A DNA stretch of 64,000 nucleotides from Candidatus Undinarchaeota archaeon. Lineage in GTDB: Archaea > SpSt-1190 > JASMDC01. The DNA lies in the NCBI GenBank assembly GCA_964519305.1, contig CAZFHY010000010.1, positions 1 through 64,000 on the forward strand. The letters run 5' to 3'. How positions within the stretch are numbered: position 1 is the stretch's first letter; the number at the start of each line of letters is the position of its first letter. The position numbers were made by a program, and so were the translations under genes. Under the pieces are notes generated by a model, which saw nothing but the letters and a program-made list of their open reading frames with translations, was not told the DNA's origin and did not search any database. This document shows positions 29,909 through 55,437 of this stretch, piece by piece.

Positions 29909-29975
29909 GTTGCGTTTTAAGAGTTTTTTGGCGCCGGGGCTCAGGTTCAAAAACCTTGACCCTTTAGTGAGCGTC

Positions 29976-30530
29976 ATGGCCGTCAACAAGGTCTACGTGT
30001 CCGCCAACCAGCTGCTGGACGACTCCTTCCGCCTTGCGCGAAAGATCTACGAGGACGGGTACCACCCGGACTTCCTTCTAGGACTGTGGCGCGGGGGCAC
30101 GCCTCCCGGTATCGCTATCCACGAGTTCTTCCGCATGAAGAAGCTCGATCCCTACCACACGGCCATCAAGACACAGTCATACACGGGGATCGAGGAGCAG
30201 AGCGAGCAGATCGAGATCAAGGGTCTAGGTCATGTCATAGATCGATGTGATGCTGATGAGAAGATGCTCATCGTTGACGACGTGTTCGACACAGGCCGCA
30301 CTGTCGACGCCCTTATCAAGGAGATCAAGAAGCTCGCTAGACGGAACACTCCCGATATCAGGGTCGCGGTCATATACTACAAGCCCACCAAGACCCTCGT
30401 GGACGTCAAGCCCGACTACCACCTCCGCACCACGGAGGACTGGATCGTGTTCCCGCACGAGCTGGAAGGTCTCACCAAGGAAGAGATCATGGTGAAGAAC
30501 AAGTACGTCTACGATGTACTGTTCGGCTAG
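29976..30530 (+). CDS. Purine phosphoribosyltransferase
   Basis: LIVDDVFDTGRT PRPP motif, WRGG and WIVFPHE. Confidence 0.9.
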   Translation: MAVNKVYVSANQLLDDSFRLARKIYEDGYHPDFLLGLWRGGTPPGIAIHEFFRMKKLDPYHTAIKTQSYTGIEEQSEQIEIKGLGHVIDRCDADEKMLIVDDVFDTGRTVDALIKEIKKLARRNTPDIRVAVIYYKPTKTLVDVKPDYHLRTTEDWIVFPHELEGLTKEEIMVKNKYVYDVLFG

Positions 30531-31405: not shown

Positions 31406-31552
31406 GATTGCATCGTCCGCGGTAGCCTTTTTTATGTGTTCCTATGGCTCCCTCTCGAACTGTCACCACTGCGTAATGACAAACTATATATACTCCTTTA
31501 GCGTACTATATACTTGCCCAATAGATGGGGCTATGGAAAAGGTGATCTTGTC

Positions 31553-34500
31553 ATGGAAAGGGGAAAGGAATTACAATTGTTCGCGGTTCTTGCCGCGTTA
31601 GTACTCTTCGTGCTAGTAACGGCCGAAGATACGAAGGTTTGCTGCTATAACGGCGTAACGGCCCAGTACGAGCTTCTCGACACCGCTGACGGTAAGGTCG
31701 ACGGGAGTTGTAATCCTGCTGATGGCGGTGAGCTGAAATATAGCTTCATGGACATGAGCTACTGTTCTTCAAGTGAGAACGCTCAAACGGAGACCTCTCC
31801 ATCGCCGAGCCCTTCACCAGCGGCGACAGAGGGACCGAGTCCCTCACCAGAGGCGGCTGCATCACCGAGCCCCTCGCCGGAGCCCACTCCTTCACCTACA
31901 CCAGCACCTACAGGGACGCCCGACGAGGCCGTTGGCCAGGACCGGTGGGGGACATCATCCACGTTCCTCTACGGCGACGGCACCCTGTCAGGTAACTACA
32001 AGTACAGGTACCAGAACGGTCGCTGGCAGATCGAGATATCCGCCCCGCCCGATTATGCCTTGAAGTTCAGGGACATCACCGAAGAATGGCTCGAACAGAA
32101 CGAAGGCAACGTGATGGGCGGTCATTTTAAAGAGATCACCAAAGAGCTCGCTAAAAGGAACTATAAGGACGGAATGCAGTACCTCTGGGACCACATGCGC
32201 AGTACAAAGGGATGGCTTGGAGTGGAACACTCCATCAAAATCCTCTCCGATGATGGAGATGTCAAATATGGTCATGATTCGGGGGATGACAAGTATGAGG
32301 ATTTCAGGAATGGGATGCAGGGATCCATCGCCGAGAATCCCTGCGCGTTCGCCGATGTACGGATGCACGTCAACGGTGCGCCCACGGGCGATGACAAACG
32401 ACTCTACTCCGTCGAGTTCTGCATCCTGAGAGGCAAGGACGGAGATGGAAAGGAGTACGAGGACCGGAACGATGATAAACCCGGATACAGCGAGGAAGCG
32501 TGCATCGACTATCTCAAGAAGCACGGTCTGCGTGACAAGGACGGTAAGAAGATCGGGGTCGATGAACGCGGGGAGGGTCACCAGCTCACTCTCGTCTATG
32601 CAGATAGCGGCCAGATGTTCTCCACCGGTGCGCTGGGCGTGGACGTGTACGGTGAGAACGGTCAGAACAAGGTCATCGAATCCCTAGATCCGGCCGTGTC
32701 ATCGTACGCACCCGATTACAAACCCACATATGCCTCAACGCTCCAGGAGGAGCAGGTCACTGGTGCCGACCAGGCCGCTGAGCAGGTGGAGGTCGCATCG
32801 GACTGGCAGCAGGATGCCATCGATGCCACTAGCGACGAGGTGGAGCGGGCTGCTGAAGAGGCCGCGAAGGAAGCGGCCGAGGCCGCGGAAAAGAAGGCTG
32901 AAGGTCTACAGCCACTCGACTTCGCCGCGCTCAAGTGCCCTGACAGCGGTGAATACAGCAACGCTGGGGAGTTCAACGCAGAGTACGCCTCCATGGCAAA
33001 AGAGCTCGCCGTCTTCTATGCCCAAGTCACCGGATACCTCGAGGTCCTGCGCACGTCGGTGAAGACGCAGCAGGACAATTGTCACGAGGCCATCGACTCG
33101 TTCACTGGACAGTACGCCGTCAGCTGCGAGATTAAGGACCTCAAGGACAAGGAGGCAAAGGACCTGGAGCTTACTGTAGTGGAGGACGCTTTTGATCCGG
33201 GGATCTGTTCCAAGGCGGTCGTCGATCATTGCCTGAAGGACGAGCTGTGGAAATGCAGCAAGGACCTCAGCGATGAGACCGCGGGCAAGGTTACGACCTG
33301 CGAGATGTGCACGGTCGAGCCGTGCTGTATCGGAACGGACTGTAAGGCATGCGCTAAGGCGGAGAACAACGAGTACGAGAAGCTACCGAAATGCACGGAA
33401 TCTTCAGGTGTCATCTGCCGTCAGCAGTTCGAATGCTGCACGAACACAGGTACAGACATACTCACTGAAGCCTTCCTCCCCCAAGAGGAATGTGCCTTCA
33501 TGGGAGGGTTTTGGGGTAACTGCCCTCCCGAGCTCGAATTCACGAATGATGAGGAGTTCGGAAGGTACGGGAGCTATCTGTGCTCACAACATTACCTGTC
33601 AACGACTGCCGCGTGCAAGTGTACAAAGAGCGGTATAAAGAAGGCCGAGTGCATCGTTATGCGGTACAATATGATCTGGGACGAAACAGATCGTAATGAC
33701 AAGGTCATCCCCGAGGAAGAGAAGTCCGATACAACAGAAGAGGAATCATCTTCCGAGGAAAGCACTGAGACCACGGAAGAGGAGACGGCTACCGAGGAAG
33801 GGGATGAGGCCACAGAAGAGGGAACGACCGACGAGGAGGATGCCGGACCGACGGACGAGGAGAAGGAGCAGAAGAAGACCCTCGATACTGAACCCTTCGG
33901 CCTCGCCAGTTGCCAACCAAAAGGATCGCTGGAGCTCGGTGATGGCGCAGAGCCGTACATCAAGACCGAGAAAGGAAGACACACCGTAGTCGACCCCATC
34001 AAGGTCGACGCGTGCCAGCGTCAGGTCGCTGACCTCAAGGACCTGTGCATCCTGGACGGAGCGAGCATATTGTTCGACGACGATAAGAAGCGCGGTCCCA
34101 CCGAGGTGCTTGCTAAGCTCGATACTCTCATCACCACCATGAACGGGTATGTCGCGGGTATGAAGGACTCGGCGCAAGTGGCCGAGGAGATGAAGGAACA
34201 GGGCGACGAGACGCTCGAGAACATCGACTCCGATGCCATCGATCCGGAGCTGGTCGACAAGTTCGAGGAGCTGCTGACAAGGGACGCTGACAAGGTCCAG
34301 GACACGCAGAAGGACCTCAAGAACGTAATCACATTCGTCAAGGGCCAGCTGATGGCCGACCTCTCGAACATCCATTTCTTCAAGCACGTACCGTCCTTCG
34401 CCGTCGTGGCGTCAAAGGATTGGCGGTACGAAGCACGATGCAATCCGTTCCAGAAACCTCACTTCGACGAGAAGTGCGAACCGATCGGGGACGGTGAAGA

Positions 34501-37500
34501 GACGGAAGAAGGGACTGAGGACGAACAGCCCGAGGATACTACCGATGAGGGCGGCGAAGAAGGCAGTGAGGAGAAGGTCGATCCATTCAACGAGGAGGTA
34601 ACATGCGAGGGACCCGGAGCGCCATCTCCGTTCTGGTGCCCGCTCAAAGAGCGTGGCGGATGCAACGCCACACAAATAACGGTCGTAGTCGCTGATACGA
34701 ACCCTGATTCCTGGGACGACCGCAAGCTGCTCGACCTACTTAGGAACGTGAATCCCGATGACCTTTTCATCAATGAGGAGAAGTGCTCCGAGTACAACAC
34801 CGAGGACGGTGGCGGTACGGCCGTCGATGAAGGCGATGTGCCGCCCGTCGTCGACACCGGCGGGACACCCTGGTACGGTTCCATCACACCGGGCGAGGAC
34901 ATCCCCGAAACGGAGAAGGACCCGCTCGTACAGTGCTGCCAGCGCATCTTCGGTATCGAGGATTCCGCCTGGGCAGGCGGTGGTATCGTCGACACGGCCC
35001 GGAGCTGGCTTGGTGTACCCTATGTGTTCGGCGGTACCAGCCGCTCGGGGTGCGACTGCTCAGGCCTTACTATGAACGTGCTCAAGGAGAACGGCATCAA
35101 TGTGCCGCGGACCGCGTCCCAGCAGTACTACGCCTGCGAGAGCAACGGTGGTACGTACGTGGACTGGGGCGACCTCCAGGCGGGCGATATCGTCTTCTTC
35201 GAGAACACCTACAAGCCCGGGGTCTCCCATGTGGGCGTCTATGCGGGCGACGACCGGATGATCCATGCGCCCAAACCGGGCGACGTGGTCAAGATCGTCC
35301 AGCTCTCCAACTCGTACTTCCGCGAGCACTGGACCGGTGGATGTCGGTACGTGGAGGGCGGTGCAAGCTACGAGGCGCTCGACATCGACTGGTGCGAGGA
35401 CGACACTGAAGAGCTGTGCTGCCAGGGCCCTGGCCTAGAGCTGGAAAAGAAGATCACCGAGCAGGAGTGCGGGCTCACGTGCGAGGAGCTGTGCGAGGGC
35501 AAGTACGAGCGCCATTCGTACAAGTATCTCGTCTGTCGCCATAAGTGCGGAGCCCGTGACGAGCAGTGCTCGGAAAAGCCCGAGGAGACGGCCTGCGAGG
35601 TCGATGGGATGGACGGTCTGTGCTGCGATGAGAAGTGCATGGTCCACGCCCTCATGTGCGCGGGCCGGGTGGAGGCATGCGTCGGCTCCCTGAGCCTCGA
35701 TCCCTGCACCTATGACGACGAGGACGGCGTGTGCTGCGGCGGGCGCTGTCTCACCGGCGAGAAGGACTGCAGCTCGTGCAAGGACATCACCGTGTGGGCC
35801 CTCAATCCCGAGACCGGTCTGTGCGATAAGTTCACCAATACCTGTGACGTACCCGACGGTTGGATCGACTGCGAGAACTTCGGGTGCGACACCGACGAGG
35901 ACGAGTTCCTCGACTGCTCCAAGGACGGCGAACTGGGCATGTGCTGCGGGAAGAAGTGCGCTCTCAACGCTGAGGACTGTGTGCCCGATGACAGCTGCAA
36001 GGGCATGGGCGACGGCGTCCCGTGCTATGCCAAGGACGTGCCTGGTGTGTGCTGCGGCGAGAAGTGCGCCGTGGGCGGTACCAGGTGCGGCGAGTGCGTA
36101 CAAGCGACGACCCATGCCAAGGACCCGGAAACGGACACGTGCAAGGAGTTCCCGACACCTTGCGACGTACCGTACGGGTACACTGCCTGTGAAGGGTACG
36201 GTTGTACCGGCCTCATCGATGGCGCCGCATGCACCAAGGATGATGAGCGCGGTATCTGCTGCGGCGACGGGTGCGTTGTGGATGCCACCGGATGCGTACA
36301 GGATACAACCCCCTGCGAAGGAAAGGCAGAAGGTGGAGCATGCGAGTCCGATGGTCAGAACGGCGTGTGCTGCGACGGTCATTGCGCGCTCGGCGGCTCA
36401 ATCTGTGGCGTCTGCGCCCAGGTCATCACATTCGCCCTCGATAAGACAACAGAGCAGTGCGAGCAGTACCCGACACCATGCGACGTGCCCAAGGGAGCAC
36501 CCCCGTGCATCGTCGAGAGCTGCCTCTCCGAATGTCAGAACGAGTTCCCTGAGAACCCGTCCCTGGCCCGCAACTGTCGTGAACTGTGCGAGACCATGGA
36601 CATCTCCTGTGAGGAGCGATGCATCATGGACTTCAACGGACGCGACGAGCGCCTTGCGTGTATCGAGCGCTGTCCCGGGGTGATCACCGAACAGATGTCC
36701 GAGAGCCTCAGATGGTGCGAGGAGGACTGCATCGACTTCAACAACGGAGAACCAGCGCCCACCCTGCTATGCTTCAGGCTGTGCCGTGCGATCCACCCGC
36801 GGATCCACGTGACCTTCGCCCTGCTCCGCGACGGTCAGGAGGCCGAGTCGTTCTTCACCGGCGAGAACCCACGAATGCGGGTCGAGGTGGAGAACCGTGG
36901 TAGTGCAGGATTCGCGGGCGACATGAACGTCGCGCTGCGGGTGCTCGACGCCTGCGAATGCGAGCCCTGTCCGGACGACTACATGTGCAGCTGCGACTGC
37001 GAAGAGGAGGAGCGCCAGGTGTTCTCGCTCGATAACATCATGCTCGCCCCCGGCGAGAAGGCGCGGTACCTCACCGACCCGGTCCGCCTGCAGAGCGAGC
37101 TGGCCGGTACGACGGTCCAGCCGGTGGCTACTGTGAGCGATACCTACGACCAGGTCATAGGCAAGCCTCTTGGCAGTTTCTACGGTGTGAGCGAGGCCGA
37201 GAAGATGGCGGTTAACGATGCGTGGTTCCTGGTCAACGACCGTGAGCGCGCGACCGCCGCCTATCCCGGCGAGTATGCCGTGGGTTTCGTGGTGTTCTCC
37301 ACTGATCAGGTGCCCGTGACGCTCGAACTGTTCATGGTCGGATGGGACGGAGCTCCCATCGAGGGCATGGACACGTCCCAGACCATCACCTGGCCCACAA
37401 GGATGGAGACGTTCACCACAGGCGAGCTAGATGTCGATACAGCCCACGTGGACTTCGTCATCCGCCTCGGGTACAAGGTCACGGACGCATCGGGTACGGT

Positions 37501-38188
37501 CCTGGCCGAAGGCACTCTCGACGAGCAGGGCAGACCGCCCGGCCTGTGCGAGGGACGCGACCTCACCACGTGGTGCGAGGGGTTGCATGAGCGCGTGAAG
37601 CTGTCCTATCCCGACGCTTACCTTGAAGTGAAACGGCCCATGCTCGACGTGGCGGACGCTGCCTTCATCGATAACGACGGGCTCGCGGTGAACCGGCTGT
37701 CCGGGAGCGATTCGGTCCGGGCCAAGCTCGAGCTGACCAACCTTGCAGCACAGACCTTCGAGGGGACCGTGATCGTGAAGGTCGTCGGTACTGACGGCAT
37801 GGCTGTCCCCGAGTCGGTCGTGGCACTGGACATCGACCGTGGTCTGGAGGGCGCTGGCTCGTCCATCGAGGTTGAGTCCGGGTTCGTATGGCCTAAGCCG
37901 GGCTCGTCCTTCCGCATCTGGATCACGGCAACGGACCGTGATGGTAGGATCTGGCTCGACCAGATAGTCCCGACCGCGCTCTTCCCGTTCGCCGAGCTGA
38001 GCGTGACCCAGGACGCCACCGAGGGACTGGTGCGGAACACGATCTTCACCACTATCATCCACGAGGGGTGCCTAGCCAGCATCCGGTGCGACGATTGCCT
38101 GACGACATGCGAGCTGCGTGTGGACCGGGCGAGGTGCACGGTCACTCGTGAGCGTTGTGACTGCGAGTGCATCATGGAGGCAATATAG
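31553..38188 (+). CDS. Giant secreted Cys-rich protein 1 with intact NlpC/P60 endopeptidase domain
   Basis: Signal peptide after a GGTGAT SD. LGVPYVFGG..GCDCSG..PRTA..Q..GDIVFF..HVGVY..MIHA at about 34985-35350. Cys repeats. Confidence 0.88.
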   Translation: MERGKELQLFAVLAALVLFVLVTAEDTKVCCYNGVTAQYELLDTADGKVDGSCNPADGGELKYSFMDMSYCSSSENAQTETSPSPSPSPAATEGPSPSPEAAASPSPSPEPTPSPTPAPTGTPDEAVGQDRWGTSSTFLYGDGTLSGNYKYRYQNGRWQIEISAPPDYALKFRDITEEWLEQNEGNVMGGHFKEITKELAKRNYKDGMQYLWDHMRSTKGWLGVEHSIKILSDDGDVKYGHDSGDDKYEDFRNGMQGSIAENPCAFADVRMHVNGAPTGDDKRLYSVEFCILRGKDGDGKEYEDRNDDKPGYSEEACIDYLKKHGLRDKDGKKIGVDERGEGHQLTLVYADSGQMFSTGALGVDVYGENGQNKVIESLDPAVSSYAPDYKPTYASTLQEEQVTGADQAAEQVEVASDWQQDAIDATSDEVERAAEEAAKEAAEAAEKKAEGLQPLDFAALKCPDSGEYSNAGEFNAEYASMAKELAVFYAQVTGYLEVLRTSVKTQQDNCHEAIDSFTGQYAVSCEIKDLKDKEAKDLELTVVEDAFDPGICSKAVVDHCLKDELWKCSKDLSDETAGKVTTCEMCTVEPCCIGTDCKACAKAENNEYEKLPKCTESSGVICRQQFECCTNTGTDILTEAFLPQEECAFMGGFWGNCPPELEFTNDEEFGRYGSYLCSQHYLSTTAACKCTKSGIKKAECIVMRYNMIWDETDRNDKVIPEEEKSDTTEEESSSEESTETTEEETATEEGDEATEEGTTDEEDAGPTDEEKEQKKTLDTEPFGLASCQPKGSLELGDGAEPYIKTEKGRHTVVDPIKVDACQRQVADLKDLCILDGASILFDDDKKRGPTEVLAKLDTLITTMNGYVAGMKDSAQVAEEMKEQGDETLENIDSDAIDPELVDKFEELLTRDADKVQDTQKDLKNVITFVKGQLMADLSNIHFFKHVPSFAVVASKDWRYEARCNPFQKPHFDEKCEPIGDGEETEEGTEDEQPEDTTDEGGEEGSEEKVDPFNEEVTCEGPGAPSPFWCPLKERGGCNATQITVVVADTNPDSWDDRKLLDLLRNVNPDDLFINEEKCSEYNTEDGGGTAVDEGDVPPVVDTGGTPWYGSITPGEDIPETEKDPLVQCCQRIFGIEDSAWAGGGIVDTARSWLGVPYVFGGTSRSGCDCSGLTMNVLKENGINVPRTASQQYYACESNGGTYVDWGDLQAGDIVFFENTYKPGVSHVGVYAGDDRMIHAPKPGDVVKIVQLSNSYFREHWTGGCRYVEGGASYEALDIDWCEDDTEELCCQGPGLELEKKITEQECGLTCEELCEGKYERHSYKYLVCRHKCGARDEQCSEKPEETACEVDGMDGLCCDEKCMVHALMCAGRVEACVGSLSLDPCTYDDEDGVCCGGRCLTGEKDCSSCKDITVWALNPETGLCDKFTNTCDVPDGWIDCENFGCDTDEDEFLDCSKDGELGMCCGKKCALNAEDCVPDDSCKGMGDGVPCYAKDVPGVCCGEKCAVGGTRCGECVQATTHAKDPETDTCKEFPTPCDVPYGYTACEGYGCTGLIDGAACTKDDERGICCGDGCVVDATGCVQDTTPCEGKAEGGACESDGQNGVCCDGHCALGGSICGVCAQVITFALDKTTEQCEQYPTPCDVPKGAPPCIVESCLSECQNEFPENPSLARNCRELCETMDISCEERCIMDFNGRDERLACIERCPGVITEQMSESLRWCEEDCIDFNNGEPAPTLLCFRLCRAIHPRIHVTFALLRDGQEAESFFTGENPRMRVEVENRGSAGFAGDMNVALRVLDACECEPCPDDYMCSCDCEEEERQVFSLDNIMLAPGEKARYLTDPVRLQSELAGTTVQPVATVSDTYDQVIGKPLGSFYGVSEAEKMAVNDAWFLVNDRERATAAYPGEYAVGFVVFSTDQVPVTLELFMVGWDGAPIEGMDTSQTITWPTRMETFTTGELDVDTAHVDFVIRLGYKVTDASGTVLAEGTLDEQGRPPGLCEGRDLTTWCEGLHERVKLSYPDAYLEVKRPMLDVADAAFIDNDGLAVNRLSGSDSVRAKLELTNLAAQTFEGTVIVKVVGTDGMAVPESVVALDIDRGLEGAGSSIEVESGFVWPKPGSSFRIWITATDRDGRIWLDQIVPTALFPFAELSVTQDATEGLVRNTIFTTIIHEGCLASIRCDDCLTTCELRVDRARCTVTRERCDCECIMEAI

Positions 38189-38216
38189 GATAGACCATAA
38201 GAGAGGTCCATGAGAT

Positions 38217-41200
38217 ATGGTAAGGGGGTTCCTGAGCATCGGGAGGATGGCCGCGGCTCTAGCTGTAGCCGTGGCCTTACTCCTGTCCGGGATCCCGACG
38301 GTCGCTGCTGATGGTGACGAGAATCCCTGCGCAGGCCTCGACATTATGGCGGGCACCATGAACCTCCCCCACGGTGGCGGAACGGACCTCAACCACGTGG
38401 CGTTCTGCATCCCCGCGGGGACCGAGGGCGCGGCAGGCTGCGCCGACCATCTCAAGGACGAGTACGGTCTCGAGCCCGTGGAGGGGACCGATAACCAGTT
38501 CGAGTACACGGGCGAGGAGGAGCTGGACCCGGAGGCGGTCCTCGCTGAGCCCGGTGGCGAGCGAGGGCAACTCGTAATGTCCTCATCGGGCCTCGATGTG
38601 CGCATCAACGGTGCGCCCAGCATCACCGAGGACGGCATCCGCGCCTGGCTGTCGGAAAAGAACCCGGCGCTGCTGGAGGCCGATCCTGACCTCCCATTGA
38701 CGTTCTACGAGACGAGCATCGAGTATAACATCGATCCGGCCATCGCCCTATCCTTCTTCCAGATGGAGTCGAGCTACGGGAAGGCCGGTAGGGCCACCTC
38801 CACGCTCTCCATCGGCAACATCAGGGAGTATGGCGACGGTCCTGCCATCGACGGCTTCAGGGCCTACGACACGTGGTCCGACGGCGTGGAGGACTACTAC
38901 CAGCTCCTCTCCGGCGACGTCTACGTGTCCAGTGGGCTGACCACCGTCGAGCAGATCGTCCCGAAGTACGCGCCGGCGGCGGACAATAATGTGCCCACAC
39001 AGTACATAAACAGTGTACGCGCCACGGCCGAGGCGATCCAGCAGTACGAGGAGGTCATGGGCCCTGATGGCGGCATTTCCACCGGCAGTGGCGGCGGGGC
39101 GCGCGGCTGCTACCCCCACAGGCCCACACCACGACGGTTGCCCGACTGCCCGAAGATGGACAACTTCGACAACGTCGTAGACTACCTCACCGAGATCGAG
39201 GCCATGTTCGACGATATGCTCAAGTTCTACGAACCGCTGGTCAACGAGCTGAAGCACTTCAGGTCCGTGCTATTCGCCGAGCAGGCGAAATGTCACGGTG
39301 CCATCAACGACTTCGCCTCCCGCTACGGTGTTCCGTGCGAGATGGACGCGTTCAGCGCGTCCGAAGAGGGCGAAGAAGAAGAGAGTGAACCTGAGGCGGA
39401 AGAGGACGCTGGTGGCAGTGAAGCGGAGCCCGAGGAGGACACGTACGAGCCGAGCACGGGGATCGAGGGCGACCTGCACCCCGAGGAGGAGGTCACCCTG
39501 TCCGTCTACGGGCCCGAGGTAAGGGACGCCCATCCGCTGGAAGCGCTTGTCCTCAGCGATGGCTTCGGCCCGGCCCTGTGCGCCGCTGCCGTGAAGGACA
39601 ACTGCCTTGCCGACGACGCATGGCAGTGCCGGAAGGGCGAGGGCCACCTCCCCGCGGTCGTCGGGACTTGCAGCATGTGCGTGGCCGAGGGCTGCTGGGC
39701 CGGTACCGGGTGCGGCACGTGCGGCGAGGAGGACGACAGCGATGACAGCGAGGGTGAGAAGAAGCTCACACCAGTGTATACGGACGGGAGCTCAGGCACC
39801 TATCCACGATCTGAGGACGAGGCCCTCACCGGCGGCACGGACCCATTCGGTGTCAAGGAATGCAAGGGCGAAGGGCTGGCCGAGGGGGAGAGGACCTACG
39901 TAGTCATAGAGCGCGGGGTGCATGCGAACGTAGAGGCGCTCGAGCTCCAGCGATGCCAGCAGGCAGCGATCGACGTCAAGGACCTGTGCATGCTCGATGG
40001 TTCAGGCGACTTCCTGGGCGATGGCGGTGTCCACGGCCCCACCGATGTGCTCGTTGGACTTGACGACCTCATCAGGGACATCGAGTCGTTCGTTTTCGAC
40101 CTCGGTAAACTGACCGATGAGGTCCACAAGATGGCCGAGGAGACCAAGAAGGACCTGGACGGCAAGGACGCGATAAACTGGCCCACCGCAGGTTCCCAGA
40201 CATCTGGATACGGGCCTAGGGGCGCGCTATGTGCCGACGCGAACCTGTGCAAACCCCACTTCCACCACGGCCTCGACATCTCGCAGGCGGGCACGGTACC
40301 GGTCATCGCCGCGGCCGACGGCAAGGTCTCGGGCCTGGTCAAGGAGTCGTCAGGCAGCTGCTACGGCAACGCGGTGTTCCTGGACCATGGCAACAACCTC
40401 CAGACGCGGTACGGCCACCTCCGATCCCTCGAGGTGAGCATGAGCCAGGTGGTCGACCAGGGCCAGCGGATCGGGCTCCAGGGCAACACGGGCTGTTCGA
40501 CAGGGCAGCACCTGCACTTCGAGATACGGGTCAACGGCCAGTCCGTTGACCCGCTTGAAGTGCTCGAGGGCAAGAGCAACGTCTTCCTGCTCTTCCACGA
40601 GGCGGAGATCTTCTCGACCATGTCGAAGAACGCCGAGAACATCAAACCGACGCAGGAGGCGCTCAAGGCGTTCGTCACGTTCCTCCGCGAGTACACTAAT
40701 GACGTGTGCGGTGCGGGCGGGACGAGCGAGGGCGACGTGCCATCGTTCCTTGTGGGTGCGTCCGATGAATGGGCGAATGGCGAGAGTTGCGATGTATCCT
40801 TCCCACCGTTGTTCGATGGGGACGACTGCACCTCCACGCAGGACGCCGACACCGAGGAGGACCCGCCCGAGGAAGAGGAGGAGGAAGCAGGCACGAAACC
40901 GGAGGAGAGCGGCGAGCACCTGGACGACTGCCCTTCAGAGAAGCATCGTGGTGGGTGCATCGCTACGACCACGACCACCTCGGTCAGTGATTCGAACAGC
41001 GACGCGTTGGACGAATCGATCGAGATCCTGCTCTCACTCGCCGGCTGGTACCCGGACGAACTGTTCCTCGACGATGAAAAGTGCTTCGGGTACAACACAG
41101 AGGGCGGGAATCCTAGTGTGTCCGGATCCGCGTCACCCGGCGGCAGCCCAGATCCCGGCAGCGAGAGCTTCGGTACCGACGAGGGTGCGGAGGACGACCT

Positions 41201-44200
41201 GCTCCCCGGTCAGGACGCCGAGGAGGGTGACGACGATCCACTAGTCCAGTGCTGCCAGCGTCTCTTCAACACCGAGACCGTGACGGGGACAGGGGGCGCC
41301 ATCGCCTACACGGCGCACAGCTGGCTGGGCGTTGCATACGCGTTGGGCGGCTCCGACCGCGTCGGCGTCGACGGTCCAGGTCTCGTGCTGGGCGTCATGC
41401 GCGAGAACGGCTTCGAGCTCCCCCGGACGGCCGCGGCACAGCTGGGATCTTGCGAGCAGCTGGGCGGTATGCGGATCGCCTGGAACGTGCTCCGACCCGG
41501 CGATCTTGTATTCCTCAAGGACGATGGATCGACGGACGTGTCCCACACCGGAGTATTCGTGGGCGATGACCTCATCGTCAACGCACCGGGTCCCGAGGGC
41601 GTTGTGCGGCTTGACAAGCTGTCCACCTTGCGCCACCGGTGGTCAGGCGGATGTCGGATCGGTTCAAGCGCATCGTCAGATGCAATTGTCGTCAGCTGGT
41701 GCCAGGAGGAGGTAGATGAACTGTGCTGTCGCGGTCCCGGCCTCGAGCTCGAACTGGCCATCTCCGAGGAGGCCTGTGGTATGTCCTGCGACGAGCTGTG
41801 CGACAGGAAGCATACACGCCACACGGTAGCCCACACGCTCTGCCGTCATGCATGCGGTGCACGGGACGAGCAGTGCGACGGCAAGACCGACGAGAGCGCG
41901 TGCGAGGTCGATAGCGTCGAGGGCCTGTGCTGCGAGGAGAAGTGCATGGTTCACGCATTGATGTGCGCGTCTCGTGTCGAGGTCTGTATCGATATAAGAG
42001 ACGGGGAGCAGTGCTCCTTTGGTGGTGATGACGGTATTTGTTGCGGTGGTCGCTGCCTCACCGGCGGCGGTGCGTGCACGCCCTGCGCAGTGGGCCCGAC
42101 ATGGGCCAAGGACCCCGCGAACGGGGAGTGCGAGCAGTTCGAGAGCGTCTGCGACGTCCCGACGGGACGGACCGATTGTGGCCCCTGTTCCGAGGTGGAC
42201 GCATTCGGCAAGGACCCGGCGACCGGGAAGTGCGAGCGGTTCGACTCCCCATGCGACGTCCCCTACGGCTGGTCGGAGTGCGAGGGACACGGATGCGCAT
42301 CTCTTGACGACGGTGCCGTGTGCTCCATCGATGGCACGGCGGGCATCTGCTGCGGTGGCGGCTGCACTGTCGGGGCCACATCTTGCATGGACGATCCAAC
42401 CGTATGTACAGACGTGGGCGAGGGCGAGGCCTGTGCAACCGACTCAGCGGGCGTATGCTGCAACGAACGCTGCGCGGTAGGTGCCGTCGCGTGCGGCGAA
42501 TGCCCCCGGGCGGTCACCCATGCCTACGATCCATCGAGGGGCCAGTGCGTGCGATACGACACGCCGTGCGATGTACCCAAGGGATGGCCGCCTTGCATCG
42601 CGTCCTCCTGCCTCACTGAGTGCCAGAACGCCCACCCGTCCAACCCTGCCCTTGCCCATGCCTGCCGGGAGCAGTGCGAGGGCGCTGACATATCCTGCGA
42701 GGAGCGGTGCCTGGCGGCGAGCGACGACACGGACGAGCGCACCAGCTGCATCGGGCAGTGCTCGAACGACGTCACCAGCAGCATGCCCGAGACGCTCAGG
42801 TACTGCGAGACTGGCTGCCTTAGTGATGACGACGCCCAGACTGGCCTCTGCATGAGCATGTGCCGGGCGACGCATCCGCATGTGAACATCGAGCTCGCTA
42901 TCGTCAGGGGAGAGCAGGAGGCCTCGTCCCTGTTCACGGGCGAGCGACCACGCCTTCGCATCATCGCCGAGAACCGCGGTTCGCGTGAGTTCGCCGGGAG
43001 CATCGAGGCGGTGCTGCGCGAGTTGTCCGCCTGCACGTGCCCGGCCTGTCCGTCAGGGGATGTATGCCACTGCGGCTGCGACACAGGAGAGCGGCCCGTG
43101 GTGCGCTTCGACGACGTGATGCTCGGCGTCGGGAAGAAGACCACCTATCTCTCCGATCCGTTCATTCTACCCGCGACACTGGCAGGTACGACGCTGCAGC
43201 CGGCCGCGACCCTCCGGGATGCCAGTGGTAGGACCGTGGGAGCACCACGCGGTCCTTTCTACGGTGTGGCTGCACCGGGACCCGTCTCGATCGATGACGC
43301 CCAGTTCACCGTCGACGGGAGGGAGCGGGCCACCACCGCCGCCCCCGGAAGCACGGCAACGGCCTCGCTCATCCTCACCACCGCCCGCGCGCCCACCAGC
43401 GTCACGGTATCCGTGGTCACTGCTGTCGGCGTCCCGGTCGAGGGCACCGAACGCATCCACGAGCTTCCCTTCCCCGTCCAGAACAAAGCCCTTGCCACGG
43501 GCCCGCTGACCGTCACCAGCGCTCAAGCTGGATCGCTGTTCCGCATCAGTTACCGAATCGAGTCCGGTGGTGTCGAGCTGGCCGCTGGAGTGCTCGATGA
43601 GCAGGGCAGACCGCCCGGTATGTGCGACGGTCGGGAGCTCACCACTGAGTGCGAGCAACTCCACCTGCAGGCCCATCGTTCGTACCCCCACGCGTTCCTG
43701 GAGGTGCTCCGACCTAAACTCGTGGCGACCGACGCGTCGTTCATGGACGCGGACGGCCGCGAGGCCATACTTATGCCCGCTGGGAAGACAGTCCGGGCCA
43801 TGGTCGAACTGGCGAACCCGTCTGGACGTCCCTTCACAGGCACGGTGACCGTGTCTGTGACGCAGGAGGACGGCTCTACTGCCCTTGGTTCAGATCAGAC
43901 CATCGAGGTCGAGCGTGGGCTCGATGGATCGTTGTCACGGTCGTTCGAGACAGCGAGCTTCCAGACCACTGCAGGCCGTTCGTACCGCATCCGCGTCCTT
44001 GGGAAGGACCGCGACGGTGCGGTCTGGCTCGATGAGATCGTACAAACTGTCCTCTTCCCCATGGCCGGGCTCAACGTTCCGGAGAGCGCTGTCAGCGGCA
44101 TCAGCCGCAACGACGTGTTCACATCCGTTGACCACGAGGACTGCCGTGCCAAGGTAACCTGCGTGCAATGCCTCTCGACCTGCGAGCTGCGTGTCGAGCG

Positions 44201-44264
44201 GACGCGCTGCACCGTCACACCTTTTAACTGTGACTGCCATTGCACCATGGAGGCGATCTCATGA
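38217..44264 (+). CDS. Giant secreted Cys-rich protein 2 with GH73-like glucosaminidase, M23 peptidase and inactive NlpC/P60 domains
   Basis: Signal peptide; YNIDPA.AL.FF..ESSYG..GNIR..YAP; HHGLD, YGHL, HLHFE; NlpC/P60 with DGPG in place of DCSG. Confidence 0.88.
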   Translation: MVRGFLSIGRMAAALAVAVALLLSGIPTVAADGDENPCAGLDIMAGTMNLPHGGGTDLNHVAFCIPAGTEGAAGCADHLKDEYGLEPVEGTDNQFEYTGEEELDPEAVLAEPGGERGQLVMSSSGLDVRINGAPSITEDGIRAWLSEKNPALLEADPDLPLTFYETSIEYNIDPAIALSFFQMESSYGKAGRATSTLSIGNIREYGDGPAIDGFRAYDTWSDGVEDYYQLLSGDVYVSSGLTTVEQIVPKYAPAADNNVPTQYINSVRATAEAIQQYEEVMGPDGGISTGSGGGARGCYPHRPTPRRLPDCPKMDNFDNVVDYLTEIEAMFDDMLKFYEPLVNELKHFRSVLFAEQAKCHGAINDFASRYGVPCEMDAFSASEEGEEEESEPEAEEDAGGSEAEPEEDTYEPSTGIEGDLHPEEEVTLSVYGPEVRDAHPLEALVLSDGFGPALCAAAVKDNCLADDAWQCRKGEGHLPAVVGTCSMCVAEGCWAGTGCGTCGEEDDSDDSEGEKKLTPVYTDGSSGTYPRSEDEALTGGTDPFGVKECKGEGLAEGERTYVVIERGVHANVEALELQRCQQAAIDVKDLCMLDGSGDFLGDGGVHGPTDVLVGLDDLIRDIESFVFDLGKLTDEVHKMAEETKKDLDGKDAINWPTAGSQTSGYGPRGALCADANLCKPHFHHGLDISQAGTVPVIAAADGKVSGLVKESSGSCYGNAVFLDHGNNLQTRYGHLRSLEVSMSQVVDQGQRIGLQGNTGCSTGQHLHFEIRVNGQSVDPLEVLEGKSNVFLLFHEAEIFSTMSKNAENIKPTQEALKAFVTFLREYTNDVCGAGGTSEGDVPSFLVGASDEWANGESCDVSFPPLFDGDDCTSTQDADTEEDPPEEEEEEAGTKPEESGEHLDDCPSEKHRGGCIATTTTTSVSDSNSDALDESIEILLSLAGWYPDELFLDDEKCFGYNTEGGNPSVSGSASPGGSPDPGSESFGTDEGAEDDLLPGQDAEEGDDDPLVQCCQRLFNTETVTGTGGAIAYTAHSWLGVAYALGGSDRVGVDGPGLVLGVMRENGFELPRTAAAQLGSCEQLGGMRIAWNVLRPGDLVFLKDDGSTDVSHTGVFVGDDLIVNAPGPEGVVRLDKLSTLRHRWSGGCRIGSSASSDAIVVSWCQEEVDELCCRGPGLELELAISEEACGMSCDELCDRKHTRHTVAHTLCRHACGARDEQCDGKTDESACEVDSVEGLCCEEKCMVHALMCASRVEVCIDIRDGEQCSFGGDDGICCGGRCLTGGGACTPCAVGPTWAKDPANGECEQFESVCDVPTGRTDCGPCSEVDAFGKDPATGKCERFDSPCDVPYGWSECEGHGCASLDDGAVCSIDGTAGICCGGGCTVGATSCMDDPTVCTDVGEGEACATDSAGVCCNERCAVGAVACGECPRAVTHAYDPSRGQCVRYDTPCDVPKGWPPCIASSCLTECQNAHPSNPALAHACREQCEGADISCEERCLAASDDTDERTSCIGQCSNDVTSSMPETLRYCETGCLSDDDAQTGLCMSMCRATHPHVNIELAIVRGEQEASSLFTGERPRLRIIAENRGSREFAGSIEAVLRELSACTCPACPSGDVCHCGCDTGERPVVRFDDVMLGVGKKTTYLSDPFILPATLAGTTLQPAATLRDASGRTVGAPRGPFYGVAAPGPVSIDDAQFTVDGRERATTAAPGSTATASLILTTARAPTSVTVSVVTAVGVPVEGTERIHELPFPVQNKALATGPLTVTSAQAGSLFRISYRIESGGVELAAGVLDEQGRPPGMCDGRELTTECEQLHLQAHRSYPHAFLEVLRPKLVATDASFMDADGREAILMPAGKTVRAMVELANPSGRPFTGTVTVSVTQEDGSTALGSDQTIEVERGLDGSLSRSFETASFQTTAGRSYRIRVLGKDRDGAVWLDEIVQTVLFPMAGLNVPESAVSGISRNDVFTSVDHEDCRAKVTCVQCLSTCELRVERTRCTVTPFNCDCHCTMEAIS

Positions 44265-47200
44265 GGTCGAGGGTGCTCGCTATCCTTTGTGTACTGGCAC
44301 TAGCCCTTGCTCTCGCCAGGCCCACGGTGAGCGTGTTCGTCAACGGTGGCCAGATCCACTCATCCTCCAATGACGGGAGCGTTGCTGCCGCAAACGCTGA
44401 CGCACCTGTCACGGTAAAGTGCACCGGGAGCGACTCCCAGGAGAGCCACATCGATATGTACATCGATGACTACTCATCGGGCCAGTTCATCTGGGGCGAT
44501 GCGTGGAACAGCGTTGTCGATGTCACCTACGACGTGGAGGGCACATACTCACTGCGCTGTCAGGGCAGGGTCGACTGCGGCGCCTCGAACATGGGCCCCT
44601 CCTGTCGCACCTACATCACTGTCACAGTGCCCGTTGGAGCAGCGACACCTACACCCGGTCCTGGCGGGCCGGGAGGTCCCGGCGGCCCTGGTGGTCCTTC
44701 AGGTCCCTCAGGTCCCCTCCCCGAGGGATGCATCGAGCCGGACCACGAACGCTACTGTGACGCATACGACCGGCTGTTCTCCCCCGACAACATCCGCCAG
44801 TACGACGCATCGATCAGGTCCAACGACGGTCTTATGCCACTGGTCGTGAACGGTGACGTGTACCCGTGCTACGAGGGTTGCAGCGACGGGAAGTGCTCCG
44901 GCGGTGACGGCACGGTGGTGTACGGCTCCGGCGTAGGGAGCCATGACCGGGCCAAGGCTCTCGTGCTGGGCGCTGAGCTGGGGATGCCTGTCGTCGAGCA
45001 CACCGGCGCGGTCCCTGGCGGCAATCTGGTGCTCCTGGGCTCGAGCACGTCCAACTCGGTGCTCGATGGTGTGGAGGACGGGATGCGTGTGCGGTACGAC
45101 CAGACCACAAACAAGGTGTTCGTGGGCAGCGAGGAGCTGGACTTCACCGCGGGCGAGCTGGCCGCGCGGTACGACGCGCCATTCATCGTGGCCTTCGAGG
45201 AGCAGGGCGGACGGTTCATCGTGGCGCTGGCCGGCAACGACCAGGCGGGCACCGCGAACGCTGCCAGCGAGTTCCAGAAGAACCTGTGCGAACCCACGTT
45301 CCGGTCCACCGTGTACGGCCTGCTGAAGGGAAGCGGCCGACCCGAGCCGGTCAAGGTGGACGATGGTGGTCAGACCATCGGCGAACGCTTCTGCCGTGAG
45401 CGGGAGGACGGCGAGGCGGGCGAGGTCCACGGATACTCACCGACGGTCGACTGGACCCACACCGACACGGACCCGACACCGCTGGGCGTGCTCGACACGG
45501 GTCTCATCGCCTGTCCCGAAGGCTGGTTCGACAACACGGTCGACTTCCGCACGGACGTGCTAACCACGCTCGACAATCTCCGCGACCTGTACAAGGTGCT
45601 CGGAGCCCACCTGGAAACGCTAGAGGACGCTCTTGACCAGCAGAAGGACCACTGTGCTTCGGCCCTGGGCACTCTGGGTACATTCCAGAACCCCGGACTG
45701 GAGGACGTGGACCTGAGCGACGCCTGCGACGTCGCACCTTGGGACGAGGAGACCGTGGCTACGTCCATGGTCCCCGAGGAGTGCCACCTCCCCAGCCCCG
45801 CCCGGCCCCGGACCTACTACTCCACCTCCTACCAGCGCGTCGTCGACGTCAAGGACGTGTGCACGCTCGACGGCTCGGGCACGCTCCTGGGCGACGAGAC
45901 CACTCACGGCCCCACACGCGTACTGGACAAGGTCACGGTCATGCGCAGCTTCGTGGACCACTTCCTCACCAGTTACCCCGATCTCCGTTCCACGATCAGC
46001 TTGCTGATCGACAACGAGCTCACCGAGATATCTCTTAGCGGCGAGGAGCCCGCTAACGACGCCGTCCCGCTGGTCGAGCGCCTGTCAGCCATCCTCATAG
46101 AGATGTCCCGCGATCCCGACACTGACATGGGTGCTGAGGAGTTCAAGGCCATGCTCGCTGACCTCATCCGGATGCTCCGGACATCGTCCACTGTCGAGGA
46201 CGTCTCGACACTAGGACACGTGTACCCCGGCCTCATGCTCTCGGACAGATGCGGTCCGGGCGAGGGTGACATCACCGACGACAACACCGATGAGTGGTCG
46301 GTACGTCAGCAGCAGGCAGTCCAGGCATTGGCCGCCATCGAAGCGGAGGACGTATTCATCTCGGCCGAAGAGTGCTTCGAGTACGCGTCGCGCTCGGAGG
46401 CCGGCTGCTCACGTATCTGTCGGGAGGAGTGCGGAGCGGATGCGGGCCATTGCCAGCGTCACCTGGGTATGTGCGTATGCCACAATCCAGACGGCACCCG
46501 TACAGCGACCACCCACTCCTGCACCGGGCCCATCATCGAGGAGGATGCCAAGCACATCATCGCCTGCTGTCTCAACGACCTCGGCGGTGTCGCAGCGGTC
46601 CCCCCTGCGCTAGGCGAGGAGGGCTCCTGCTCGGGACCGGACGTGCCAGGATTGACCTTCGACATCTGCTCCGACGAGTCGGGATACCTGTGCTGCATAC
46701 CTGGCGGGCTCGAGGCGGAAGAACGGGCCGACGACACCTGCACCATGGAATGCGGGCCCATGTGCGCCCTTATCCATCCCGACGACGAGGACGCTCGCAT
46801 CGCGTGCGTGGGCACGTGCACCTCGGATGCGGGATGTACGGACCGGGACGGCGATACCTGCGTGGTGGGCGCCAGCGAGGGTGCGTGCTGCGGAGGTACA
46901 TGCGTGGCCGGAGCTTCGGGCTGCGATGCCGGCTCAGGGTCAGGCTGCGCCGGGCTGAGTGACGGCGAGGCCTGTACTAGCGCAGTGGGCGTGTGCTGTG
47001 GAGGCTCGTGCGCCCTGGACGCCACGGACTGCGGTAGTCTGAGCACCTGCAACGATATGTGCCGGGACCTCGTGGCCATCGACCAGGTGTCCGCGTGCAC
47101 CACGGTGTGCGTGGAGATGGACGTGTCCTGCGAGGAGGGGTGCGGCGCGTTCCCCGATCCGGGTCCGTGCCTGCGCAAGTGCGGTAACGGCGCCGACGAG

Positions 47201-48757: not shown

Positions 48758-48764
48758 GGGCACC

Positions 48765-49109
48765 CTACCAGGCGGTCATCTCCTTACGGACCTCGTCGGT
48801 CCACCGCGCGATGATCCCGAGGATCCGCTGCTTGAGCTGGTCCTTGTCCTTGATAGAGTAGAAGAATGTATAACCGCCTCGGGGATTATTGGACTGGCGG
48901 CGGCGGAGGATGTTCTTTTCGGTGAGCGACATGACCGCGCGCTGCACCGTGGTCCGGTCCTTGTCGAGGTCCTTGGCTATCTCGCGTGCCATGAGCTCTT
49001 CTGCGTTGGAGAGAAGATGCATCATCACTGCGTACTCGGTCCTTGAGAGCTCGAACCCGCAGGTAACGATCTCCTTGAACGATACGGTGCGGCAGGCGAA
49101 GGTCGCCAT
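48765..49109 (-). CDS. Predicted HTH transcriptional regulator (TrmB/MarR-like)
   Basis: C.F.LS.TE, EIAK.L.KDRTTVQRA...L and GGY.F.Y motifs. Confidence 0.8.
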   Translation of the reverse strand: MATFACRTVSFKEIVTCGFELSRTEYAVMMHLLSNAEELMAREIAKDLDKDRTTVQRAVMSLTEKNILRRRQSNNPRGGYTFFYSIKDKDQLKQRILGIIARWTDEVRKEMTAW

Positions 49110-55080: not shown

Positions 55081-55264
55081 CGTATAATCTAATGCGCTCA
55101 AGGGTTATATTCCCTTTGATGGGGAAGGGCCATCGGTCCCGGTGATAGGGCACGAAGCGCTCACATCCGACAGCGCTCTTCTATGGGCACGACCATATGC
55201 ACAATGATCTCGGCGGTATCACTGGCCAGGAATGTGTGCGGGGGGCGAATCACCCCCCGCTGAG

Positions 55265-55378: not shown

Positions 55379-55404
55379 TTGCTTCCTTTCCGGAGTGCTG
55401 CGGT

Positions 55405-55416
55405 TTCCTTTATATA
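55405..55416. promoter_or_regulatory. TATA box in the divergent tRNA-Phe / radical SAM spacer
   Basis: TTTATATA about 25-30 nt from both starts. Confidence 0.55.
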
Positions 55417-55437
55417 CATTTCTTTTGCCATCGGTCC

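Follow-up and report, generated by a model that had tools for sequence, protein, structure and literature searches.

Giant cysteine-rich proteins of an undinarchaeon with wall-hydrolase-type domains set into a shared scaffold

Introduction

Little is known of the ways in which archaea fight bacteria, feed on them or attach to them. A locus in a marine archaeon of the Candidatus Undinarchaeota bears on this by raising a question of its own: why would an archaeon encode giant proteins in which domains of bacterial type, several of them resembling wall hydrolases, interrupt a framework that is otherwise shared? The window analysed here, meaning the whole stretch of 64,000 nucleotides (GenBank assembly GCA_964519305.1, contig CAZFHY010000010.1, positions 1 to 64,000 of the forward strand), contains three tandem paralogous open reading frames (ORFs) in one orientation (+), at 31514-38188 (g1), 38217-44264 (g2) and 44240-48757 (g3). 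A preliminary description proposed that their products share conserved blocks interrupted at three fixed slots (A, B and C), that different domains occupy these slots in different paralogs, and that this follows a polymorphic-effector logic.

We find that the three genes belong to a real, previously undescribed modular family that is nearly lineage-specific; a limited literature search, supplements not included, returned no description of the scaffold. The evidence supports the plug-in of whole domains at internal sites. We consider it fairly probable that the whole is best explained as a set of chassis proteins with recombining internal cargo, used against bacterial walls.

A shared scaffold in three tandem genes

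Collinear blocks, here termed B1, B2, B3 and B5, are common to g1, g2 and g3, together with a C-terminal module of about 515 residues. A MAFFT alignment of the three proteins and BLASTP comparisons recover the conserved blocks on which the preliminary description relied. Between g1 and g2 the BLASTP match runs across 1326 residues (E 0). Between g1 and g3 it covers the C-terminal half (E 2e-95), the B5/Cys region (4e-11), B2 (1e-6) and B1 (1e-4), with a weak match for B3 (E 0.093). A non-circular test employed block hidden Markov models (HMMs) trained on 14-16 paralogs outside the window, alongside 60 shuffled controls. These leave-out HMMs match g1, g2 and g3 for B1, B2 and B3 with independent E values of 2.5e-8 to 3.7e-12, and the top score among the 60 shuffled controls was 2.8 bits. 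For B5, the leave-out model (five paralogs) finds g3 at 1e-4 and g1 at 4e-4, and does not bring g2 below E 1. With B1-B3 also collinear in 19 of 19 paralogs, as set out below, the proposal of a shared scaffold with aligning flanking blocks holds.

The product of g1 is a giant, cysteine-rich and putatively secreted protein of 2211 residues, read from the ATG at 31553 (31553-38188, +) within an ORF that is open from 31514. This start is backed by the sister-species ortholog, which begins MERG at the equivalent methionine, and a TATA-like run lies ~50-70 nt upstream. Its B1 (32879-33157, +), a long helix with the motif CP..F/Y.N, is matched by the iterated block HMM at E 7e-26 and by the leave-out HMM at E 1.4e-9. 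The corresponding values are E 1e-22 and 9.7e-11 for B2 (33983-34180, +; DxKDLCxLDGSG..HGPT), and E 8e-22 and 8.5e-11 for B3 (34622-34837, +; ..NxDxW...DDLFI..EKC.EYN). B5 (35351-35539, +; WC....ELCC.GPGLE) is matched at E 3e-26, and the C-terminal module (36608-38182, +) by the family HMM at E 3.9e-191. Judged from a structural model of the smallest family member, this module would comprise a helical cysteine-rich part, beta-sandwiches and a terminal Cys knot. Slot B of g1 (34181-34621, +; 147 residues) is empty, the alignment and the table of lengths showing a helix-turn-helix only.

The second gene, g2 (38217-44264, +), encodes a giant, putatively secreted protein of 2015 residues with three wall-hydrolase-type domains. 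Its blocks are B1 (39078-39368, +; HMM E 2e-24), modelled as a 52-residue helix with a predicted local distance difference test score (pLDDT) above 90, B2 (39924-40121, +; E 4e-21), B3 (40917-41135, +; E 1e-20) and B5 (41658-41846, +; E 6e-25), followed by the C-terminal module (42696-44255, +; family HMM E 5.3e-176). The third, g3, is a scaffold-only paralog of 1498 residues read from the ATG at 44261 (44261-48757, +). An N-terminal region of 379 residues (44312-45448, +), corresponding to slot A, precedes B1 (45449-45730, +; HMM E 5e-22, leave-out E 4e-9), and B2 (45797-45994, +; E 1e-22, leave-out E 2e-10) begins only 22 residues past it. Slot B of g3, at 74 residues, is the family minimum. 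B3 (46217-46426, +; E 8e-20, leave-out E 3.7e-12) is followed by an empty slot C of ~30 residues, after ..IIACCL.. and just upstream of B5 (46625-46810, +; E 2e-25), and the C-terminal module closes the protein (47222-48745, +; E 5.5e-178).

Besides the slots first listed, a fourth variable region separates B1 from B2, with 275 residues in g1, 185 in g2 and 22 in g3. The g1 version, A2 (33158-33982, +), consists of cysteine-rich sequence and acidic linker and matched no Pfam family at E 0.01 or better. Further, the count of cysteine-rich repeats ahead of the C-terminal module differs among the three proteins. The genes themselves are tightly packed. A 28-nt spacer containing a GAGAGG motif separates g1 from g2, and the first ATG of g3 (44261) overlaps the g2 stop as ATGA, a 4-nt overlap. 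This spacing suggests that the array is probably a single operon, co-translated.

Cargo domains of the three proteins

The domains found within these intervals largely bear out what was first proposed for slots B and C. An M23 metallopeptidase domain occupies slot B solely in g2 (40260-40553, +; residues 682-779), with a Pfam match to PF01551 at E 4.9e-28 (97.6 bits against a cut-off of 28.7) and a PDB sequence match to 5j1l_A at E 6.7e-18. The zinc-ligand motifs of M23 enzymes are HxxxD and HxH; both are present here (H683..D687 and H765-L-H767), and the sister ortholog keeps both. Slot C carries an NlpC/P60 domain in g1 and g2 and none in g3, and in both proteins it lies between ..CCQR.. and ..LCC.GPGLE. 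The g1 domain (35012-35338, +; residues 1167-1275) has a Pfam E value of 2.7e-25 (88.8 bits against a cut-off of 23) and a PDB sequence match to 3h41_A at E 7.2e-21. The catalytic triad of NlpC/P60 enzymes consists of Cys, His and a polar residue, and in g1 it is present as Cys1182 (DCSGL), His1239 and His1251. The g2 domain (41328-41621, +; residues 1038-1135) matches PF00877 at E 2.5e-11 (43.9 bits, cut-off 23). It lacks the nucleophile: Gly1053 (VDGPGL) replaces the Cys, Asn1122 stands at the third catalytic position, and the sister-species ortholog has the same Cys-to-Gly change (VDGAGL).

Slot A fared less well. The Ala/Glu-rich stretch reported ahead of B1 in g1 is indeed visible in the translation. 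The glucosaminidase reported in g2 is tentative, a GH73-like match to PF01832 (38703-39008, +; residues 163-264) that scores 22.4 bits in the whole protein and 26.7 bits in the slice, both below the Pfam cut-off of 30.2. PHROGs gave weak lysis or tape-measure matches for this slot (best E 1.5e-4, phrog_2276, tape measure), and the slice found chance matches only among PDB sequences (E 0.58 or worse). The 'S-layer-like' label given to slot A of g3 finds no backing. For these 379 residues (25-403) Pfam gave nothing at E 0.05 or better, PHROGs only a match at E 0.097 and the ESM Atlas, queried with residues 28-405, nothing usable; g3 as a whole had no Pfam or NCBIfam match, and its PDB sequence search returned 0 matches at E 0.1 or better. 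The only S-layer match anywhere was that of the C-terminal module to 8s83_A, at a chance-level E of 0.3.

A family of 19 members and its variable sites

The array is one part of a larger family. Searching whole-genome ORFs with phmmer and hmmsearch defined 19 full-length members of 1081-2846 residues. All 19 carry the C-terminal module (E 1e-139 to 1e-194), and in all 19 the iterated block HMMs find B1, B2 and B3, always in that order and ahead of the module. B5 is present in 10 of the 19, and B4 in g1 and g2 only. Members are 3.6-7.1% Cys and 12-19% Asp+Glu, and 18 of the 19 have an N-terminal hydrophobic stretch, as judged by eye. Their arrangement is partly tandem, with three plus two genes on contig C1 and three plus two on contig C10.

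The blocks are constant, and the intervals between them vary enormously: the four intervals, in order, span 16-1046, 22-562, 74-603 and about 0-1012 residues. In the minimal member, L024 (1081 residues), they measure 25, 24, 133 and 140 residues. We scanned for cargo with Pfam, both on whole proteins and per interval (63 slices of 90 residues or more). Before B1 lie the glucosaminidase-like region of g2, an M23 domain with a weak SLT match (E 0.034) in L025, and three C-type lectins in L026. The B1-B2 interval holds M23 in L015 and L016, the latter again with a weak SLT match (E 0.027), and Kazal_2 in L021 (E 2.7e-7) and L020 (E 2.7e-4). Between B2 and B3 are found the M23 of g2, an NlpC/P60 domain in L012 and FG-GAP repeats in L018, and between B3 and the C-terminal module the NlpC/P60 domains of g1, g2 and L025. 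Domain content therefore varies among homologs, with M23, NlpC/P60, SLT-like, lectin, FG-GAP and Kazal domains catalogued in differing slots. The majority of inter-block intervals contain no recognised domain.

One member departs from the common plan. In L015 (C19:1070-7414), the first half of the C-terminal module is doubled (profile positions 7-258, then 65-514), and a 205-residue insert bearing a weak SLT match (E 2.3e-4) lies inside this partly duplicated module. Consequently, the conserved C-terminal module itself accepts cargo.

The number of sites is larger than three. Thirty members (19 own and 11 external, with P0021 omitted for its length) were aligned to L024, and insertions of 40 residues or more occur at the N-terminus and after L024 residues ~129, 157, 237-255, 351-368, 420, 485-490/532, 541 and 821, these positions being approximate as MAFFT breaks some single inserts into pieces. 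The site after residue ~157 is used in 24 of 29 sequences. There are thus about eight hot spots, and at least that many, in place of the three slots first proposed.

Beyond the family proper, giant ORFs of ~2100-3130 residues at C7:65253-78541 (+; three in tandem), C24:26829-36218 (-) and C27:23279-30976 (+) match the C-terminal module in its last third only (profile positions ~323-512; E 1e-14 to 1e-24). They may represent a second, related family of giant proteins.

Movement of cargo between sites and species

How did differing cargo come to lie in a common scaffold? Ordinary divergence offers one answer: a domain-rich ancestor would have been duplicated, partly in tandem, its copies would have lost different domains, and empty slots would be deletions. 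We regard this as rather unlikely. The scaffold tree was built from the C-terminal module of the 19 own members and 11 of 38 external matches, with fragments and near-identical sequences left out. Within it g1 and g2 are sisters (support 100) and g3 joins them (97), so that the three are mutually closest, as tandem duplicates would be. All seven NlpC/P60 domains of the family (five in slot C, two in slot B) group together against 42 external matches (support 97/87), and a single origin of this kind fits one ancient acquisition.

Several observations are nevertheless hard to reconcile with loss. The host scaffolds of these NlpC/P60 domains belong to different clades of the C-terminal-module tree, and the one NlpC/P60 lineage is found at two points of the scaffold: L012 and P0019 carry it in slot B, following the B2 helix, and g1, g2 and L025 in slot C, downstream of B3/B4. 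The g1 domain is 57% identical to the slot-B copy of L012 and 47% identical to the slot-C copy of g2. The g2-type M23 likewise lies before B1 in L025 yet after B2 in g2, and these two cluster with one external protein (support 99/95). To produce this by loss alone, the ancestor would have had to hold copies in duplicate at each site. The M23 tree included 34 external sequences from the 120 matches listed, together with P0077, and monophyly of the family M23 domains was not rejected (p-AU 0.60). In L015, L016 and the external P0012, the interval from B1 to B2 holds an M23 domain of a second type, with about 30% identity. Among the sequences included, the nearest outsider in both the NlpC/P60 and the M23 tree is P0077, a metagenomic protein of 488 residues that carries M23 and NlpC/P60.

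Comparison between species adds further evidence. Synteny of the array extends to the sister species, whose housekeeping proteins MCM and agmatinase are 96% and 87% identical to those here. The best conserved of the trio is g3 (90% identity; synonymous divergence, dS, 0.44; ratio of non-synonymous to synonymous divergence, dN/dS, 0.13), and g2 is 55% identical (dS 1.05). The g1 protein is mosaic: up to about residue 1100 its identity is 33-55% (dS 0.9-1.9), and beyond that point 81-95% (dS 0.4-0.76); dS values above 1 in these comparisons are saturated, inflated by low-identity alignments and qualitative only. The step in g1 identity is sharp and falls within the linker that opens slot C, which points to recombination rather than divergence alone. 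The diverged half of g1 has no nearer counterpart among the other paralogs. Further, the sister g2 lacks the glucosaminidase-like cassette, leaving a clean indel between conserved flanks. This cassette is thus found in g2 of one species only, and a search for it found no second copy in this genome or the sister genome (G000, G001).

Some features of these data limit the case for movement, the coarseness of the saturated dS values among them. The tree is unrooted, the indels are not polarised, and the backbone of the C-terminal-module tree is weak, with 10 of 27 branches open, its deep branches included. Because of that weak backbone, loss from a domain-rich ancestor stays in contention for cargo that shares a slot. 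The plug-in of whole domains at internal sites remains the supported reading for cargo of one lineage at different sites.

Three lesser observations concern the M23 domains. A stand-alone 211-residue M23 ORF on C1 was considered as a donor cassette and ruled out, being of a different type and without a signal peptide. The M23 copies of L015 and P0012 lack the first His of HxxxD (..DTGMD..), which L016 retains (..HRGID..), and may be degenerate LytM-type domains. P0012 also has a Peptidase_C39-like domain beside its M23.

Predicted structure of the scaffold

If cargo is plugged in at defined sites, what would those sites look like? AlphaFold2 models were made for full-length L024 and for residues 288-1215 of g2, the alignment for the latter deepened with eight bacterial NlpC/P60 or M23 proteins. 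The L024 model has a mean pLDDT of 79.8 and a predicted template modelling score (pTM) of 0.40. It shows B1 as a 49-residue helix and a helical region at 77-415 that includes two short strands, followed by cysteine-rich beta elements (441-531), a helical cysteine-rich part (534-621) and beta-sandwiches (625-1079). Segments with pLDDT below 50 (130-132, 159-163, 344-363, 417-426 and 494-496) coincide with five of the insertion hot spots, and the slot-B site is a 5-residue turn (238-242) between helices 217-237 and 243-261. In the g2 model (mean pLDDT 75.0, pTM 0.54), the M23 domain is placed between a 41-residue helix (321-361) and return helices (502-544) via low-confidence linkers, and the NlpC/P60 domain is compact and preceded by a long disordered linker.

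The modelled cargo resembles known enzymes closely. The g2 NlpC/P60 domain (model residues 737-862) aligns to 7cfl_A with Z 21.0 and a root-mean-square deviation (rmsd) of 1.6 Å over 121 residues (VIA-align), a papain-like fold. The g2 M23 domain (368-505) aligns to 3tuf_B (Z 15.4, rmsd 2.9 Å, 129 residues) and to StM23, 9gy1_A (Z 14.8), a LytM fold. The C-terminal module is predicted to form three to four tandem beta-sandwich domains, with Foldseek E values down to 3e-7 at low template modelling scores. This part of L024 resembles sandwiches of the adhesin, MG and Ig-like kinds (8f9l_B, Z 10.2, rmsd 3.1 Å, 116 residues); its profile found nothing among PDB sequences better than E 0.3.

The preliminary description placed cargo at the loop tips of a helical bundle, and this holds in part. 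The M23 domain does sit at an inter-helix turn, but slot A is an N-terminal extension, and a crude permutation test finds no significant association of hot spots with coil, which is touched by 12 of the 20 sites, a number reached by 2069 of 20000 random placements (p about 0.10). The models support one helical bundle that would bear cargo at its turns, and other points besides the coil test should temper that picture. The pTM of both models is low. The packing is taken from fold matches, in which L024 residues 74-422 align to the single helical bundles 6z0c_A (Z 10.0, rmsd 4.4 Å, 178 residues) and 3o1h_A (Z 8.4), scores that fall under the tool's caution line of ~13 for helical bundles. The fold-search lists are moreover dominated by enzyme domains or beta-sandwiches, and barely probe the N-terminal scaffold.

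Function and proposed explanation

What would such proteins do for their producer? No match to Mur_ligase_M was found in the genome, which is 99.83% complete, and the control was positive in 12 of 14 genomes, two archaea among them. It is therefore most likely that the archaeon lacks a substrate of its own for wall hydrolases, making bacterial peptidoglycan outside the cell the probable target. Four of the four NlpC/P60 domains and four of the five M23 domains of the genome belong to this family, and among the matches listed the closest outside relatives of the hydrolase domains are bacterial wall hydrolases. Bacterial walls are thus the likely target of the cargo enzymes.

We propose that the family consists of lineage-restricted, Sec-secreted, disulfide-rich giant proteins made by an archaeon without peptidoglycan. 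Their chassis would be built from an elongated helical N-terminal scaffold (B1-B3), small cysteine-rich knots (B4/B5 and repeats) and the ~515-residue C-terminal beta-sandwich module ending in a Cys knot, and about eight tolerant sites (the N-terminus, inter-helix turns and Cys-knot loops) would accept whole folded domains. Cargo would be gained, lost and moved between sites and paralogs via recombination. NlpC/P60 enzymes are endopeptidases of the gamma-D-Glu-diamino-acid type, and g1 would supply an intact one. The g2 protein would combine an M23 peptide-bond cutter, a possible glycan cutter and a dead NlpC/P60 domain that perhaps binds the stem peptide. There are precedents for binding by inactive NlpC/P60 domains, RipD being one, and the g2 domain gives a weak match to the RipD-type NCBIfam model (E 0.0012). 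The third protein, g3, would be a bare chassis, the most strongly constrained of the trio. Together, the family's role would be to hold wall-cutting or adhesive modules outside the cell so as to breach or grip bacterial walls, whether for killing, feeding or docking, three uses that sequence cannot separate. What the data show directly is the architecture, the identities of the domains, their variability and the patterns of phylogeny and mosaicism, and from these we infer secretion, disulfide bonding, the target and the service of the C-terminal module as stalk or anchor; attachment of the proteins to the cell surface is conjecture.

Several results run counter to this proposal. Ten of the 19 members have no Pfam domain in whole-protein scans, so wall hydrolysis cannot be the common function of the family. 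The g2 NlpC/P60 domain is a member of the domain family but, to judge from its missing nucleophile, catalytically dead and probably not an enzyme, and the glucosaminidase-like match of g2 stays below its cut-off. No LysM, SH3, PG_binding or similar wall-binding domain was found by Pfam at E 0.01 or better, and neither a membrane anchor nor a sorting signal can be seen at the C-terminus.

Such findings would sit comfortably with proteins of the envelope or of attachment, such as S-layer-associated stalks or partner-cell adhesins, in which any hydrolases would serve the envelope of the cell itself or scavenge debris of peptidoglycan for food, and would not act on living bacteria. The array of beta-sandwiches at the C-terminus looks like an adhesin stalk, the lectin, FG-GAP and Kazal cargo is adhesive or inhibitory and not lytic, the members without a recognised enzyme domain are the majority just mentioned, and g3, with its high conservation, has no enzyme. 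We nevertheless find this account unlikely. Given the lack of a Mur ligase, murein or pseudomurein of the archaeon's own is not expected; the catalytic residues of the g2 M23 and g1 NlpC/P60 domains are intact; and bacterial wall hydrolases are, as noted, the nearest outside relatives. As to scavenging, it looks the same in sequence as attack.

A stronger form of our proposal, reached partly by analogy with polymorphic toxins, would see in the family a weapon system on the cell surface, directed against bacteria or serving predation. A helical bundle stapled by disulfides would stand on a stalk of beta-sandwiches and offer some eight loop sites, and recombination would diversify it into 19 or more proteins whose cargo comprises wall-cutting enzymes, lectins, integrin-like propellers and protease inhibitors. 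Unlike polymorphic toxins, it would use internal cargo sites, and no immunity genes would be needed, since the producer is without peptidoglycan. This we offer as a tentative possibility. Should the explanation of a chassis with recombining cargo be true, modules would be presented several at once and reshuffled between species. Tested archaeal wall hydrolases are few, small and two-part, and this family would add a giant multi-module scaffold design. A natural chassis that tolerates whole-domain insertion at defined loops would also be of interest to protein engineering, and the g1 NlpC/P60 and g2 M23 domains are concrete candidate enzymes for marine bacterial walls.

Comparison with known systems

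The nearest functional parallels are Woldo and Danwoldo, secreted peptidoglycan hydrolases of the archaeon Halogranum salarium (PMC12352652). As that survey describes it, the setting is alike: an archaeon without murein secretes enzymes of the M23 or glucosaminidase type that originate from bacteria, a role is given to the shuffling of domains, and bacteria are the target (PMC12352652). They differ, according to the survey, in being small, with one catalytic domain and a known wall-binding domain (PG_binding_1) that the survey required (PMC12352652). In the family described here the enzymes are instead internal inserts in cysteine-rich scaffolds of 1500-2200 residues, with 19 members and no known binding domain.

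In polymorphic toxin systems, the variable module is a C-terminal toxin paired with an immunity gene. The likeness lies in a conserved presenting part with variable, recombining modules (PMC3482391), and in multi-copy tandem arrays with fast turnover between close relatives. Unlike those toxins, the family has its best-conserved part at the C-terminus (19 of 19 members), its modules are internal and N-terminal, and its target polymer is absent from the producer itself. The g1/g2 (28 nt) and g2/g3 (4-nt overlap) junctions are too tight to hold an immunity gene, a statement that does not cover the small ORFs at 48.7-50.1 kb downstream. The 'polymorphic-effector logic' of the preliminary description is consequently an analogy only, as the variable C-terminal toxin is absent and no immunity gene fits between the genes.

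MARTX toxins are marked by RtxA repeats rich in glycine and by a processing domain of the cysteine protease type, and they leave the cell by type I secretion. They too place variable internal effector domains between conserved flanks, and these vary between strains. MARTX cargo, however, forms one central array, whereas here extracellular wall hydrolases occupy several separate loop sites, and neither RtxA repeats nor the cysteine protease domain gave a Pfam match at E 0.01 or better in g1-g3. A long helical protein with an internal wall hydrolase also recalls phage tape-measure, ejectosome and tail proteins, as do weak matches, that to phrog_2276 and those of the g2 M23 to M23 regions in the PDB (9k2v_E and 9m7n_A). 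Yet the window lacks phage context, the likeness is confined to the enzyme domains, and the scaffold blocks and C-terminal module had no phage match.

Giant bacterial adhesins (ice-binding 5irb, antigen I/II C123 and the ester-bond repeats of 8f9l) share the predicted C-terminal beta-sandwiches. They differ in showing no sequence similarity, the best PDB profile match being at chance level, and in having long repeat arrays where this family has few sandwiches; nor are cysteine-rich knots and a helical N-terminal scaffold features of giant adhesins. Finally, P0077 resembles g2 in carrying M23 and then NlpC/P60 in the same N-to-C order, with an NlpC/P60 sister support of 95/77 and membership of the M23 set (99/95). 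Unlike the family, it is small, its two domains are joined by an Ala/Pro linker, and the scaffold blocks are missing. Murein-type lytic transglycosylases have been noted in three metagenome-assembled genomes by a study of DPANN genomes (PMC10936187).

Distribution and genomic setting

Where else does the scaffold occur? A profile of the C-terminal module searched against 1.84 billion representative proteins gave 64 matches at E 0.001 or better, 24 of them at 1e-30 or better, and a word-indexed homolog search with the module found a single protein, a partial sequence of 90% identity to which NCBI gives the label 'Methanopyri archaeon'. When the 38 external matches were compared with the genome's own paralogs, 16 were 70-100% identical to one of them and seven had no BLASTP match. 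The distant full-length members P0017, P0021, P0024, P0025 and P0041, from metagenome contigs, retain the B1-B2-B3 order, and P0023 shows B1 and B3 only. Among 41 genomes, the C-terminal module is present in this genome and its genus mate only; the 39 without it include 15 of the same class. Genome size is 3.63 Mb here and about 3.8 Mb in the genus mate, and the 15 same-class genomes sampled measure 0.6-1.2 Mb, so that a large-genome lineage is placed in a class of tiny-genome, DPANN-type archaea.

It is highly improbable that bacterial contamination or a chimeric assembly put these hydrolase genes into an archaeal bin: the assembly is in 42 contigs with 4.29% estimated contamination and the hydrolase domains are bacterial in type, but the array sits between archaeal housekeeping genes and an apparently intron-bearing tRNA, its 17.4 kb form one contig piece with 0 differences in four runs of two studies (the source assembly possibly among them), it is syntenic in a second species, and the scaffold is confined to this genus among the genomes searched.

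The housekeeping genes of the window are archaeal and comprise MCM, Topo VI A/B, NMD3, RIO1, DUF655, Thg1 and agmatinase. The tRNA match (55265-55378, -; 114 nt, Rfam RF00005, 55.9 bits) received no ARAGORN call, and its length points to an archaeal tRNA with an intron. The listed start of an ORF at 55264-56370 (+) overlaps this match, and the true start of that ORF is therefore probably further downstream. Adjoining the array is an ORF of 582 residues (28241-29989, -) with no Pfam family at E 0.001 or better. Near the array lie a 547-residue WD40 beta-propeller protein (53458-55101, -) and a 468-residue Laminin_G_3 (concanavalin-like) protein (58960-60366, +). The genome is rich in domain types typical of eukaryotic extracellular proteins, including WD40, Laminin_G_3, C-type lectin, FG-GAP, Kazal and TSP-like domains.

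Contigs of the four runs were also mapped onto the array. None convincingly joins across a cassette, and the sole joint among them ('skips 3904') is anchored at one of its ends by just 21 letters. Three of the four runs also contain short contigs of low depth that are 80-90% alike and map to window positions 34886-36628 and 47087-48800, covering conserved NlpC/P60, Cys-repeat and C-terminal regions. Their degree of likeness fits related strains or paralogs sharing the same waters.

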